Assembly: GCA_963772365.1 (NCBI GenBank)
Contig: CAVYXA010000001.1
Span: forward strand, 416,001 to 480,000
Source: an uncultured Verrucomicrobiae bacterium
GTDB taxonomy: Bacteria; Verrucomicrobiota; Verrucomicrobiia; Chthoniobacterales; UBA10450
Direction: 5' to 3'
DNA: 64,000 bases
A program made the position numbers. The stretch's first letter is position 1. Every line of letters starts with the position of its first letter. Of the stretch, positions 21,401-27,400 are shown in pieces.

Positions 21401-24400
21401 CACCGTTTTGTGAACAAAGTGCGTCATCCTGATACCGAAATCACTCCGGAAGATTTCGAGAAACAGATGCAGGAGCTGAAGGACAAGGGGATCACGGTGA
21501 TTGGACTTCAGGACATGCTGGCCTGGAAGCGTGGTGAGAAAAATATCCCGCCGCGGTGCGCGGTCATTACCTTCGATGACGGCTGGAAATCGCAGTACAA
21601 CGTGGCCTGGCCGATCCTGAAAAAGCTCGGTTACACACACATGATGTTCATTTACACCGAAGGTGTGCGGGGCGGACACTTCGGTGGGGGAGAGGCGATC
21701 ACCTGGGAGCAGCTGGGCGAGATGCGCGATGCCGGCGTTGATATCGAAGCGCACTCCGCGACCCATCAGGACCTGCGTAAAGCCTACGACAAAGTGACAA
21801 AAAAGAGATTGAGCCCTCCGGAATACGAGGAATTCCTGAAAAACGAGATTTCCGGATCGAAGCAAACCCTCGAGCAAAAACTCGCGATCAAGGTGAATTG
21901 CTTCGCAGTGCCATACGGGTTTTACAATGAGCACATCAAAGAAGTGGCAAAGAACGCGGGTTACGAAGCGCTCTTTACTGTTTACGGCCAGCCGATCACT
22001 TATTCGACGCCGCTCGATTCACTCGGCCGTTACATGATTGAGGCGAACAAACCGAAGGTGTTTGCGGACGCGGTAAAAATCATTGGCAGTTCGACCGAAG
22101 GCGGACCGGCTGTCGCCGTTATCGGGGCCGAGGCTCTCCAAGGGCAGCCGAAAGATGGTGAAACGATTCGCACAGGGTTGCCGTTGATCCGGGCTAACCT
22201 AAGCTCGCTTGGGCAGATCGAGCCAGGTAGCGTGCAAATGCGGGTAAGCGGTCTTGGTCTGGTCCCGGCGAGTTACGATCCCAAGACGGGAATCGTTTCC
22301 TATCAAGTCAGGCAGAAACTGCGTGACAAGACATGCTCTGTGATTGTAACAGCCAAATCGCAGGGCAAGAAAATCGAAGCTCATTGGACTTTCGGGATTG
22401 AAGAAGCGGCCGGTGCACCATCGACGTCGCCGAAGAAATAGTTGAAACGCGTTCTCCTGAACGCGTTCGTCGAAATGAGCGGGCAAAGCCGCATTGATTT
22501 TTAGCATCGTCTTCGGAGAAGCCGGTCCACTGTATGTTCTCCCAACTCAGCGATAAACTTCAGGAAATCTTTAAGGACCTGCGTGGTCACGGAACCATCA
22601 GCGAGGCGAACATCGACAGCGCCCTGCGCCAGGTGCGGCTGGCCTTGTTGGAAGCCGATGTGGATTTTCAGGTAGCGAAGGATTTCATCGCCAGCGTCAA
22701 AGGAAAGGCGATGGGCGAAGAGGTGTTGCGAAGCATCATCCCCGGTCAGCAGATCGTAAAAATTTTCCACGATGAGTTGGCCAAACTTCTCGGAGGCGAT
22801 GCCGAGCCGTTGCGGCTGGCCGAGAAGACACGGATCTTGATTGTTGGCCTCAACGGTTCCGGAAAAACGACGACGTCGGCCAAGCTTGCCCTGCATTTGA
22901 AAAAACTGGGACGCGCGCCGGCATTGGTCGCTCTAGACTTGCAACGCCCTGCCGCCATCGCGCAGCTTCAAACTCTTGGTAAGCAGATTGATGTGCCTGT
23001 TTTCACGCCAAATACAGGAACCGTCGATGTTCGGAATGCAGGGCTTGCGAGCCTCGAATGGACGGCACAGCAATCGGCTAACATCGACATTTTCGACACC
23101 GCTGGGCGTCAGGAGATCGACGAGGAGCTGATCGAAGAGCTTAAGAAGCTAAAAGAAGTGATTCAACCCCGGGAAATCCTTCTGGTGGTCGATGCTGCGA
23201 CAGGCCAACGCGCGGTGAGCGTGGCCACGCATTTCGATAACGCCCTTCAAATCACGGGTATCATTTTGACCAAACTGGACGGCGACGCTCGCGGTGGCGC
23301 GGCATTGTCGATGCGCGCCGTCACCCAGCGGCCCATCAAGTTTGCCGGGACTGGCGAGAAACTAGATCAGTTCGAGCTATTCGTTCCCGATCGCCTGGCC
23401 GGGCGAATATTGGGCATGGGCGACATTGTCGGCCTAGTCGAGAAAGCGACCGAAGCAGTTGAAGAAGAAGAAGCGCTTCGGTTGGAAAAGAAATTGCGGA
23501 CAGCCTCCTTCGATTTCAACGATTTCCTGGCCCAATTCAAAATGATGAAAAAAATGGGACCGCTGGAGAATATCCTTGGCATGTTACCGGGGATGAGTAA
23601 CGTGCAGGGCCTCTCCATTGACGAGAAGCAGCTTGCCCACACGGAAGCGATCGTGCTTTCGATGACCAGCGAAGAACGGAGCCGTCCCGACATTCTAAAT
23701 GCCCGGAGGCGTCAGCGCATCGCTCGGGGAAGCGGCACCACCGTCAGCGAGGTAAACAATTTGCTGCGTCGCTTCGATCAAATGCGCAAAATGATGAAGA
23801 GCACGGGCAAAATGAAAAAGATGATGGCGCAAATGGCGCGAATGAGAAAATAACATGGCAGTTTCAATTAGATTACGTAGAGAAGGAGCGTTGAACCGCC
23901 CCTATTACAAAGTTGTAGTGGCGGATAAACGCAGTCCACGCGACGGCAAATTCATCGAGATTGTTGGCACCTATGATCCGAAAAAGCCCGCACACAATAG
24001 CACCCTCAAGCTGGATCGCGTTGAACATTGGATCAGCAAGGGCGCGCAGCCGAGCGATACGGTCAGGAGCTTGATCAGAAAGAACCGGAGAGAAGCGGTA
24101 AAAAGTTCGGCGCCAGCAGCGGCGGAAACACCAGCTGCATCTGAGGCAGCGGCTACAGAAGCGCCAGCCGCTGAACCGGCGCAATTCTAGCATCGCCAAG
24201 CAGCAGCGGCATTTGCGATGTCCATTTTCAGTTTGCGACGCTCATAGAGCGCCGCTACAGAAGAAGTCGGCACGAATATCTGGAGAGGGGTGCAAGCTTC
24301 CCGATTCGTCCAAGAACAACGACATGAGAGAATTTCTCGAGTTTGTGATCCGGCAGCTCGTCGAATTTCCCGACGAAATGATGCTTACGGAAATTCCCAG

Positions 24401-27400
24401 CGGCAAGACAACGGTGTTCAAACTTCAGCTACGGCAGAGTGATGTCGGTCGCGTAATTGGACGTAACGGCCAAACCATTCAAGCCATTCGGGCATTGCTA
24501 AACAGCTCCGCGTCCCGTCACGGTCAACGAGCCACTCTCGAAATCGTAGAATAGTATTCTCGCCTATTCCGTATTGGACGTTCGGCATCCGACGTTCGAC
24601 GTTTTCGCTTTGATGAAGATCGACATCCTTACACTTTTCCCCGAGATCTGCCGCGCGCCTCTGGGCGAAAGCATGATGAAACGGGCGCAGGAAAAAGGAA
24701 TTGTCGATCTTCGCATTCACAATCTCCGCGATTGGACCACCGATAAACATCACATCGTCGATGATACACCGTTTGGCGGCGGGCAGGGGATGGTGATGAA
24801 ACCAGAGCCAATCTTCGCCGCGGTGGAAGATCTCAGGAAGCAAACATCGGACACTCAATCAGAGAAAACGAAAATCATTTTGATGAGTCCGGCAGGACGC
24901 CCGCTTAATCAAAAGCTGGCAACAGAGATATCGAAAGAATCGCACCTCATCATCATTTGCGGACATTACGAGGGCGTCGATCAGCGGGTTATCGAGCATC
25001 TTCTCGACCTTGAGATTTCGATTGGCGATTATGTCCTAACGAACGGCGGGATTGCCGCCGTCGTTCTTGTGGATGCAATCGTGCGATTGCTCCCTGGCGC
25101 TCTGGGACATGAGCAGTCAGCTGCCGATGATTCGTTCAGCGCGGGACTGCTCGAAGCGCCGCAATACACCCGCCCCGCCGAATTTCGCGGCTGGAAAGTC
25201 CCGGAGATCCTCCTTTCGGGAAATCACGGACAGATCGCGGCGTGGCGAAAAGAGCAAGCGTTCAGGCGCACAAAAAAAAATCGGCCTGATCTATTATCCT
25301 AATTGCGCACGCGTCCAAAGACGACACAGGCATTGATTCCGCCGAACCCGAACGAATTGCTCATCACATAATTTAGTTCAGCAGCGTGACCGTGGTTTGG
25401 AACCACATCGAGATCGCAAGCCGGATCAGGATTTTGATAATTTATTGTGGGCGGAATCCGCTGTTGATCCAACGCCAGTGCGCAGATAGCGCCTTCGATT
25501 GCACCGGTCGCCCCTAACGGATGCGCGTGATATCCCTTGGTGCCGCTGACGGGAATTTTCCTGGCGTGCTCGCCGAATACCCGTTTGATCGACATCGTTT
25601 CAGCGCTGTCATTGAGCTGGGTAGAACTGGCATGGGCGTTAATGTAATCGATCTGTTCGGCGGCCAGTTGCGCATCTGCCAAAGCGTCGCGCATGGCTCG
25701 CATGCACGATTCACCGGTGGGCAATGGCGTCGTCATGTGAAATGCGTCATTGTTCAAACTGTATCCGAGCACTTCGGAGTAGATGTGAGCGCCCCGATTG
25801 CGTGCATGATCCAGTTCTTCCAAAATCAGCGACGCGGCGCCTTCGCCCATGACAAAGCCGTCGCGCAGAAGATCGAACGGCCGGGAAGCCGTGGCCGGAT
25901 CTTCATTGCGGCTCATCGTTTTGATGATGTCGAACGCGCCAATGGTAATCGTGGTAAGCGGGGCTTCCGCGCCTCCAGCAACCACGACATCGGCGAAATC
26001 GTCACGAATGTAGCGAAGCGCTTCACCGATTGAAACTGTTCCACTGGCGCAGCTATTAGAGTTCGTTGTGCCGACGCCGCGAAAGCCAAAATCGATTGCG
26101 ATATTGGAATGGGCCGAACCGCCAAATACCTGCACGGCGAGTGTCGGCTGTACACCGCGAGCGCCTTTTTTCAGGAAGCGAATGTATTGCTCTTCCGCTT
26201 TGCAAACACCGCCCAGAGCGGTACCGAAACTGACACCGATTCGGTCCTGCGGATGGTCATGGGAATATTCGAGGCCTGCGTCATCGAGCGCGAGCTTGGC
26301 CGAAACGACAGCGAATTGCGCGTAACGATCGAGCCGCTTTAAACGATGCGGCGCAAAAAACTCCTCTGGATTCCAATCGCGAATCTGACCGGCACAGCGC
26401 ACTTTGAATGCGCTGGCATCAAACGCCTCGATCCTGCTGATTCCAGTTTTTTCGGCAAGGATCCCGTCCCAAAAATTTTCGCGACCGCGCCCGATACAGG
26501 TGACCGGACCTAGACCGGTGATGACAACGCGCCGCCGATTCATGCGTTCACCGTTGTGACCTTGCCTTCCACATATGCCTTCATACAGCGCAGAGTTTTA
26601 TTAGCAATGTTGTGAATAAAGAAATCGCCGATGACAGGATCGACAATCGGCGCCAGCGCAGGAATTCGAAACCGCAGGTCGTGCGCGATCTCGACCAGCA
26701 CGCCCTCGGGCGTTTCGCGAAATGTCCAGACGACGTGCATCCCTTTGGTAAATGCTTTGAGGTGATTGAAGCGCACCTCGATTTTTTCGCGGTCGATGAT
26801 CTGTTCGGACGTCCAGGAAATGGGAACCCGGGACCGAGTCGCGGCCATGATCACGATGTTTCGATCCGGACTTCGTTCGAGATAACGAATGTAACGATAA
26901 TGCGGTAGAATCTTTGGCCAAAGTTCCAGATTCGCCGCCGTCTCGAAGATCGACATCTTCGGCGCGCGCATCGTGATCGAGTTGGTCTTGTGCATCGGTT
27001 TGGATCAAACTACACGGCGCGGCAGGAGGGCGCAGCATCTTTGCGTCGTTTGCCACTGTGCCAGATGCGACCTTCTTCGTATGCAATCCCACGTTATGCA
27101 CGCTGGAAAGTTGCGCCCTCCCGAAGCTTAATAGCCATGCATCGACATCGATTTATTCGTTGTCTTTGGTGATAATTCCAAACCGACCGTGCTTCTCGTC
27201 CGCGATTCCAGCGATGAAATAGACTCCTTCGCCGAGCGGCAGCATGTCCCACAAGCCCTCTAATTGAAGTGGTGTTCCATCGGCCTGAATGATCGTTCCG
27301 AGAAAGTCGCACGCTGAAACGTTGATTTGAATGCTTTCATATGAACCGGATCGGATTAAAGCGAGACGGCGGCTAGCCTCGAAAGGTAACGAGCCTGTTA

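Follow-up and report, generated by a model that had tools for sequence, protein, structure and literature searches.

Absence of a detectable RimM gene from the rpsP-trmD locus of a Verrucomicrobiae bacterium and from related phyla

Introduction

Reviews describe the ribosome maturation factor RimM as 'conserved in bacteria' and RimP as 'highly conserved' (PMC9032327, sections 2.6 and 2.7; here and below, PMC numbers refer to passages of the papers concerned). The closest described cases of their loss are the Patescibacteria (CPR), in which rimM and rimP are nearly absent (0.4% each) and era and rsgA are often missing (Amikura et al., PMC12641178; 10.1101/2024.11.29.625318), and the Mollicutes, all of which keep RbfA while only a few keep RimM and RimP (Grosjean et al., PMC4014445). 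The published exceptions that we found are reduced symbionts or parasites. Among non-CPR bacteria the frequencies are 94.9% for RimM and 92.3% for RimP (PMC12641178), in agreement with an earlier note on the present DNA that put both above 90%; the same note cited that survey as reporting the loss for CPR only, but CPR are not the sole published case, since most Mollicutes also lack both factors (PMC4014445).

RimM binds residues 83-93 of uS19, which it contacts through an acidic surface (PMC8073977). A terminator hairpin of the GGG..CCC type followed by a U-tract, the rimP-leader, has been described in front of the nusA-infB operon, at 4-130 nt from its first gene (Naville and Gautheret, PMC2965389). 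Here we examine a 64,000-nt stretch of an uncultured Verrucomicrobiae genome (the window; the genome comprises 3.35 Mb in 6 contigs and is 90.3% complete), and compare it with genomes of the Planctomycetota-Verrucomicrobiota-Chlamydiota (PVC) superphylum and its relatives. The assignment to the phylum follows the earlier note and the 16S sequence of the genome, whose nearest counterpart (80.9%) in a comparison with 121 loci, mostly from named records, carries the name Verrucomicrobia.

Results

The rpsP-trmD locus

The window contains the canonical ffh-rpsP-(khpA)-trmD order, with the following features.

22534..23853, + strand: ffh, encoding the SRP54 protein, at the start of the cluster; Pfam SRP54, SRP_SPB and SRP54_N
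23855..24190, + strand: rpsP (ribosomal protein bS16), ORF matching PF00886 at E 3e-24; C-terminal tail rich in Ala, Glu and Pro
24324..24554, + strand: khpA (KH-domain RNA-binding protein), PF13083 at E 4e-20; common in trmD operons
24555..24612, no strand: vacant rimM slot, the 58-nt khpA-trmD spacer, defined by sequence and gap length with the E. coli order as reference
24613..25302, + strand: trmD (tRNA m1G37 methyltransferase), ATG at 24613; PF01746 at E 1e-68

The E. coli trmD operon has the same frame, its order being rpsP-rimM-trmD-rplS with a rimM of 549 nt. In the window, the canonical rimM position between rpsP(-khpA) and trmD is empty, as the earlier note had described for this locus, and since the spacers measure only 133 nt (rpsP-khpA) and 58 nt (khpA-trmD), no rimM can fit. 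rplS is also absent 3' of trmD in the window, where a ketoacyl-synthase gene lies on the opposite strand instead, while rplS follows trmD in most other loci compared. We considered khpA as a substitute for RimM and rejected it, because many RimM-less PVC loci are also without khpA.

Searches of the whole genome

The RimM N-domain model PF01782 gave no match in the genome at E<=10, PRC_RimM (PF24986) none at E<=1, and the full-length model TIGR02273 a best E of 0.36. A purpose-built profile of 20 alphaproteobacterial-type proteins plus that of E. coli, run with --max on 17,868 six-frame ORFs, reached 0.42 at best. The sole PRC protein of the genome, a tandem-PRC protein of 233 aa, received no score from the RimM profiles. 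The best match of RimP_N (PF02576) had an E of 0.48 and lies in what we take to be a LigD-polymerase-like ORF; a RimP profile built from 18 PVC and Poribacteria proteins (--max) gave 0.13 at best, and no rimP gene was found 5' of nusA. As far as profile searches can tell, rimM and rimP therefore appear to be nowhere else in the genome, as had been claimed. The genome also lacks Era and RsgA, whereas RbfA, KsgA and RsfS are present. Hence the view that two factors are missing was right as to RimM and RimP, both undetectable, but understated the shortfall.

RimM in related phyla

The phylum-wide absence of RimM asserted earlier was reproduced with a larger sample, none of 301 Verrucomicrobiota genomes giving a profile match, but to regard it as a trait of Verrucomicrobiota is too narrow. 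RimM was also missing from all 61 Chlamydiota genomes, from all 61 Omnitrophota genomes (no match above the cut-off), from the 47 genomes behind named 16S loci and, by the full-length model, from 5/5 Poribacteria. The single match among 151 Planctomycetota genomes lies on an alphaproteobacterial contaminant contig of 1,931 nt, adjoining an IS-like transposase, with Aestuariivirga as its close named relatives (78-83%). These genomes are a sample in which kin are not independent; those without RimM reach 10.8 Mb. The same approach detected RbfA in 101/101, TrmD in 79/79 scored and uS19 in 59/59 cases, and the RimM models found their target in 10 of 10 control bacteria.

Weak matches did not change this picture. 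Sub-cut-off matches occurred in 12 of the 61 Omnitrophota genomes; the four inspected were SecDF, and the other eight were similar in ORF length. Three of ten weak matches in the own phylum were inspected and are presumably uS3, an AraC-like ORF and an HlyD-like ORF.

The loci themselves agree with the searches. rpsP/khpA lies upstream of trmD in 42 of 50 trmD loci, and none of these 42 has space for rimM: the gap before trmD is at most 184 nt in 38 (in one case measured from a ylqD gene), three larger gaps reflect long bS16 tails and one contains YlqD. In Poribacteria, the 140-aa ORF that occupies the rimM slot likewise proved to be YlqD, not RimM.

RimP and the nusA leader

RimP was found in one of the 301 Verrucomicrobiota genomes, on a 2.4-kb contig that we counted as a contaminant and take to be Bacteroidales-like, so that its reported absence extends across the phylum. 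It was also missing from 14/14 Chlamydiota. RimP is kept in 9/20 Omnitrophota, 4/39 Planctomycetota and 5/5 Poribacteria, and the assumption that both factors were lost together is thereby refuted. The four planctomycete proteins form one clade, are encoded away from nusA and score 21.7-51 bits, near the Pfam cut-off; in the three checked, GC content is near that of their own trmD loci.

nusA of the genome starts at C3:89539 (- strand) and is preceded by a 9-pair hairpin with a U-tract at C3:89589-89565, 21 nt upstream of the ATG. We scored 19 of 20 stretches (one had no nusA) for a U-tract preceded by a GGG..CCC hairpin no more than 130 nt from the first gene of the operon, a pattern set after viewing these sequences, and found it in 16/19, compared with 0.3% of shuffles. 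By eye, the same motif also stands before rimP at several Omnitrophota and Poribacteria loci (e.g. L190, L191, L192 and L201). The own leader has no Rfam match at E<=10. From its sequence, we assign the own leader as a putative attenuator of the rimP-leader type, sharing the hairpin and U-tract but differing in that the first gene is nusA itself. The earlier proposal that the rimP-leader terminator now sits directly on nusA is thus consistent with the published type (PMC2965389).

The uS19 tail

Within the RimM-binding tail of uS19, 12 of the 14 outside controls carry a motif comprising D/E86 and K/R88, which none of 47 PVC or 4 Poribacteria proteins has. We chose the controls by hand from five phyla (13 of 65 plasmid-collection matches plus E. 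coli), with RimM presence checked in a minority, and because kin are not independent the contrast may represent only one or two evolutionary events. Monoglobus and Bacteroides, two of the controls, lack the full motif, indicating that it is dispensable for RimM function. Looking for suppressor-like changes, we found h31 identical to that of E. coli, uS13 without internal deletion and H83 of uS19 kept, and hence no specific compensating change among these three. Several Verrucomicrobiota have an additional gene separating rpsS from rplV, which we rejected as a uS19 chaperone, since its N-terminus is signal-peptide-like in 3/3 relatives inspected, it matches no Pfam family above the cut-off and it is not universal.

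Discussion

Based on these observations, we consider it likely that rimM was truly lost in the PVC ancestor and rimP later, that the 30S head is assembled unaided, and that the uS19 tail decayed. In this scenario, a clean deletion would have removed rimM from the rpsP-trmD operon no later than in the ancestor shared by Planctomycetota, Verrucomicrobiota, Chlamydiota and Omnitrophota, probably in a single event, and its absence from Poribacteria would be a shared or a separate loss. rimP would still have been present in that ancestor and lost several times afterwards, leaving the leader terminator directly on nusA; the order of these losses is suggested by the observed distribution. How the cells cope is a matter on which we would give roughly even chances to the following account: RimM may be a kinetic chaperone rather than a structural need, uS13 and uS19 may bind and fold the head without help, RbfA, KsgA, RsfS and the initiation factors may act as the remaining checkpoints, and the C-terminal tail of uS19 may have decayed once released from RimM docking. 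It has been reported that E. coli without RimM is viable, that head proteins bind spontaneously and that IF1, IF3 and RsfS guard joining (PMC13246957), and that extra RbfA compensates for the absence of RimM (PMC9032327, section 2.6).

As the absence of RimM was read from sequence profiles, diverged homologues of RimM (and RimP) might lie elsewhere in the genomes, past detection. Both proteins are short and fast-evolving, the own assembly has a completeness of about 90%, and the planctomycete RimPs, displaced from nusA and near the cut-off, demonstrate that relocation and divergence do occur. However, three RimM models and the PRC-barrel model retrieved nothing RimM-like, single-contig genomes included, the RimP profile from the nearest relatives had no match in the own genome, and the docking motif on uS19 is lost, so that we judge hidden homologues very improbable. 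Pre-adaptation of the rRNA, in which A at 16S position 1015 (GAAA loop, h33b) would permit RimM-free assembly as in E. coli h33b suppressors, seems to us distinctly unlikely. The E. coli suppressor allele is reportedly G1015A. The GAAA loop occurs in Verrucomicrobiota (2/2), Planctomycetota (18/19 parsed), Omnitrophota (2/2), Poribacteria (3/3) and CPR (8/8), E. coli having GAGA, and h31/h33b suppressors are published (PMC9032327, section 2.6). On the contrary, two of six chlamydial 16S sequences have GAGA although RimM is missing, and among 54 unnamed metagenome 16S sequences with the standard EUB338 site 21 have GAAA and 26 GAGA, indicating that GAAA is common outside PVC; A1015 is not specific and at most a permissive background.

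A further idea, which we hold to be unlikely and put forward tentatively, is non-orthologous replacement by the TIGR04137 'small basic protein' (51 aa, net charge +10; own copy at C1:1046252), which, as a 30S protein or assembly factor that is particular to this lineage and stabilises head RNA, would have made RimM, and later RimP, Era and RsgA, dispensable. It is found in 71/80 genomes (Verrucomicrobiota 21/21, Planctomycetota 22/24, Chlamydiota 8/8, Omnitrophota 19/20, Auribacterota 1/1) and above the cut-off in 0/14 controls. Its neighbours are RNA-maturation genes: ybeY lies downstream in 8/8 chlamydial loci, the gene immediately follows era in G070 and lies 3' of trmD in G063, and in 8 of 18 Verrucomicrobiota loci the neighbour is what we take to be a pseudouridine-synthase-like gene. 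According to PMC3444138, the protein is restricted to PVC and has no known function. However, RimM loss is possible without it, since neither RimM nor this protein occurs in Poribacteria (0/5) and RimM is missing from CPR and Mollicutes as well; being basic, it is no like-for-like chaperone, whereas RimM binds uS19 by an acidic surface. Moreover, its structure model is a single helix (pLDDT 74.5) without a match in the fold search, it has no PDB sequence match, its Atlas matches are confined to its own family, and co-occurrence within one clade counts as one event. If the PVC ancestor did rewire small-subunit assembly in this way, which we doubt, the small basic protein would have entered the 30S head or its assembly, RimM would have been dropped, the uS19 tail would have decayed, and RimP, Era and RsgA would then have been shed in lineages like the own class. 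Free-living bacteria would then run a 30S pathway on RbfA and KsgA alone, and the PVC signature protein, long unexplained, would gain a function, for which this is a first concrete hypothesis.

Returning to ancient loss of rimM, the absence concerns a whole, mostly free-living superphylum with large-genome members, and the own class, as judged from a small sample, apparently has no RimM, RimP or Era and only seldom RsgA. These losses indicate that such factors serve for optional tuning and do not belong to the core machinery. We found no published statement of RimM or RimP loss in PVC, supplements and subscription papers lying outside the scope, and the family-level heat map in Fig. 2A of PMC12641178 may show the gap; the main text of that paper never names Verrucomicrobiota, Chlamydiota or Planctomycetota, and rimM is unmentioned in the passages of PMC2474590 and PMC3444138. 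The supplementary tables examined for Verrucomicrobium spinosum have no rimM or rimP rows, and likewise no rbfA row; for this species transposon data and targeted deletion are available (PMC12283558). Since rimM and rimP are both BAC120 markers (PMC12641178 supplement), the loss pattern is latent in databases, and PVC genomes fall short of one or two universal markers through biology and not incomplete assembly, whereas a rimM match in a PVC genome flags a contaminant contig.

Compared with known systems, the present genome resembles CPR in the loss of rimM and rimP and in lacking era and rsgA. The genomes of CPR, however, are tiny, their rRNA is shortened, and rbfA and der have often been lost, whereas PVC genomes reach 10.8 Mb, RbfA is universal among those scored and RimP is patchy. 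Mollicutes show the same order of retention as PVC, with RbfA kept and RimM and RimP mostly lost, but they are parasites of less than about 1 Mb whose losses are tied to genome reduction, an explanation inapplicable to most PVC genomes; the present genome, at 3.35 Mb, combines the reduced factor set of CPR and Mollicutes with a genome that is not strongly reduced. Finally, deletion of rimM in E. coli leaves cells viable but slow-growing with a long lag, whereas in PVC the absence of RimM is a permanent state accompanied by an altered uS19 tail.

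RimM is absent from the rpsP-trmD locus and from the genome

Taken from contig C1 of a 3.35 Mb genome (90.3% complete), the window carries the following genes:

22534-23853, forward strand, ffh
23855-24190, forward strand, rpsP
24324-24554, forward strand, khpA
24613-25302, forward strand, trmD

An earlier note had claimed that rimM is missing from rpsP-khpA-trmD and that neither rimM nor rimP lies elsewhere in the genome. The spacers around khpA are only 133 nt and 58 nt long, and the slot occupied in E. coli by the 549-nt rimM is empty. Short palindromic-looking repeats are found in these spacers (24195-24260 and 24570-24605). 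When we searched this genome, the RimM N-domain model PF01782, PF24986 and phmmer gave no RimM match, and the best E-values were 0.36 with TIGR02273 (no RimM), 0.15 with tblastn of two RimMs and 0.42 with a home-built RimM profile run with --max. The sole PRC-barrel protein is a tandem-PRC protein. RimP was equally undetectable, including with a profile of 18 RimPs from Poribacteria and the PVC group (Planctomycetota, Verrucomicrobiota, Chlamydiota, Omnitrophota), a profile that detects E. coli RimP at E 2e-40. Both claims therefore stand, and the nearest-relative RimP profile and the --max RimM profile revealed none of the diverged homologues about which the note had worried.

Fifty of the 79 trmD loci found were fetched, and rpsP or khpA lay upstream of trmD in 42. 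The gap to trmD was at most 184 nt in 38 of these (one measured from an abutting ylqD), and a larger gap corresponded to a long bS16 tail in three and to YlqD in one. In the remaining eight loci trmD had moved away from rpsP. Two Poribacteria loci (L234:1016-1438 and L236) keep the Bacillota-like order rpsP-khpA-ylqD-trmD-rplS without rimM.

Distribution of RimM and RimP

RimM exceeded the cut-off in 0/301 genomes (at least 90% complete) of Verrucomicrobiota, 1/151 of Planctomycetota, 0/61 of Chlamydiota and 0/61 of Omnitrophota, these counts being samples of genomes in which kin are not independent. Nor was it found in the 47 genomes reached through named 16S loci, for which no completeness was listed (31 planctomycetes, 6 chlamydiae, 4 omnitrophotes, 1 Auribacterota, 4 Poribacteria and 1 verrucomicrobium), or, with the full-length model, in any of 5 Poribacteria. 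Positive controls run with the same tool were recovered throughout: RbfA in 101/101, TrmD in 79/79 scored, uS19 in 59/59, and RimM in 10/10 control bacteria in every RimM search. The lone planctomycete match (L177, G456:C89) is a contaminant, since it lies on a 1,931-nt contig and its named relatives (78-83% identity) belong to Aestuariivirga, an alphaproteobacterial genus. The absence noted earlier for Verrucomicrobiia and for a smaller sample of the phylum thus reaches beyond the phylum, and the loss of RimM is real and superphylum-wide.

RimP was found in 1/301 genomes of Verrucomicrobiota, on a 2.4-kb contig (L013, G135:C48) with the layout nusA-lpxD-lpxC, which we take to be Bacteroidales-like; the absence of RimP reported earlier from a small sample holds on this bigger one. 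Because these sole RimM and RimP matches lie on tiny foreign contigs, both genes can serve to flag contamination in PVC genomes. Among 80 pooled genomes, RimP was kept in 4/39 Planctomycetota (one below the cut-off, yet E 8e-10 by phmmer), 9/20 Omnitrophota (G501 counted in) and 5/5 Poribacteria, and in 0/14 Chlamydiota (one scored only partly), 0/1 Auribacterota and 0/1 unclassified small genome. The four planctomycete RimPs form one supported, diverged clade (L200, L203, L204, L205); none of their genes has nusA within 1.5 kb, and three share a neighbour, presumably a tRNA-dihydrouridine synthase gene. The Omnitrophota and Poribacteria copies lie before nusA. Based on this patchy retention, we infer that the PVC ancestor most likely had RimP and that repeated losses came later, on a tree without a proper root and in which the Omnitrophota rows do not resolve. 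In genomes G356, G385 and G405, trmD is also detached from rpsP.

The nusA leader

The ATG of nusA is at C3:89539, and a hairpin of 9 pairs with a U-tract lies 21 nt 5' of it (C3:89589-89565). A GGG..CCC-plus-U motif, a pattern written after the sequences had been seen, occurred within 130 nt of nusA in 16/19 phylum genomes vs 0.3% of shuffles, and also before rimP in several RimP-positive relatives. This leader matches the terminator leader published as the rimP-leader in passages of PMC2965389, as the earlier note had it. NusA is treated there as its likely regulator, so that a leader staying with nusA is expected.

The uS19 tail

According to passages of PMC8073977, the docking site of RimM on uS19 is the basic C-terminal tail (residues 83-93). 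We fetched 50 of the 59 uS19 proteins found, added the own copy, and compared them with 14 controls: E. coli and 13 hand-picked from 65 plasmid-collection records (Proteobacteria, Bacillota, Actinomycetota, Fusobacteriota and Bacteroidota; RimM checked in few of them). D/E86 together with K/R88 (E. coli numbering, Met1) was present in 12/14 controls, two lacking the full motif, and in 0/47 PVC/Auribacterota and 0/4 Poribacteria proteins. P59 occurred in 14/14 controls vs 12/45 parsed PVC proteins, and 5/6 chlamydial tails end by residue 87. The tail change fits relaxed selection after partner loss, and the PVC rows may represent one event. The loss of the motif also argues against a hidden RimM.

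Possible compensation for RimM loss

E. coli can do without RimM, since its head proteins bind spontaneously and IF1, IF3 and RsfS meanwhile hold the subunits apart (passages of PMC13246957). The defect left by RimM loss is suppressed by more RbfA or by changes in uS13, uS19, h31 or h33b (PMC9032327; passages of PMC3575805). For PVC bacteria, such a suppressed state may be the permanent condition. Beside the observed clean deletion, its phylogenetic spread and the uS19 tail decay, we sought a compensating change and found no clean one: h31 equals that of E. coli, uS13 is intact and uS19 retains H83. Nearly all RimM-less groups have a GAAA loop in h33b, but so do 21/54 standard-type metagenome 16S, and 2/6 chlamydiae have GAGA.

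If RimM was positively replaced, the best candidate would be the PVC signature small basic protein, TIGR04137, whose own copy is:

G000:C1:1046252-1046398 (L026), small basic protein gene

It is present in 71/80 genomes, and its gene adjoins ybeY, era, trmD or what we take to be a pseudouridine-synthase-like gene, being directly 3' of era in G070, 3' of trmD in G063 (further loci L376 and L377) and 5' of ybeY in 8/8 chlamydial loci. However, Poribacteria lack both RimM and this protein, and its charge and one-helix model are unlike RimM. We thus regard such a replacement as unlikely and favor the permanently suppressed state.

Other assembly factors

The own genome has RbfA, KsgA, RsfS, HflX, LepA, RNase III and TruB, and a weak YbeY candidate (E 0.01). 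Era gave only GTPase-domain matches with nothing for the KH part, RsgA and RlmH were not found, and Hfq had no clear match (best E 0.22). Among small samples, full-length Era was present in 2/8 phylum genomes and 0/5 of the own class, and RsgA in 1/8 phylum genomes; one planctomycete and one chlamydial genome have RsgA without full-length Era. Passages of PMC10582724 list Era loss for Chlamydia, Dependentiae and CPR and patchy presence in Planctomycetota, and do not name Verrucomicrobiota. On this small sample, the own class apparently also lost Era and RsgA.

Several side observations were made. In the window, rsfS lies at about 302-691 (reverse strand); in E. coli without RimM, RsfS acts as a checkpoint. 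The spc operon does not include rpsN (uS14; G000:C5:278622-278846), rplQ is split over two frames (C5:271005-271356), probably by a sequencing error, and uL30 had no match in the own genome. Between rpsS and rplV, an unannotated gene at G000:C1:324900-325760 (forward strand) encodes a signal-peptide-like start, a coiled coil and a C-terminal beta-rich domain, with no Pfam family over the cut-off. Such an insert is also found in L417, L423 and L428, so that several Verrucomicrobiota from at least two classes carry it, and five other Verrucomicrobiota have no rplV within 1.5 kb after rpsS.

Comparison with known losses

Published cases of RimM and RimP loss are CPR (passages of PMC12641178), the one that the earlier note had cited, and Mollicutes (passages of PMC4014445). 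A targeted literature search found no statement of this loss in PVC. The supplement of PMC12641178 marks both genes as belonging to the BAC120 set, so public marker tables already contain the pattern, even where nobody has commented on it. We conclude that a superphylum-wide loss of RimM was followed by repeated losses of RimP. Losses of this kind are known, and the PVC case stands out in being independent of genome reduction and in having a matching trace on uS19.
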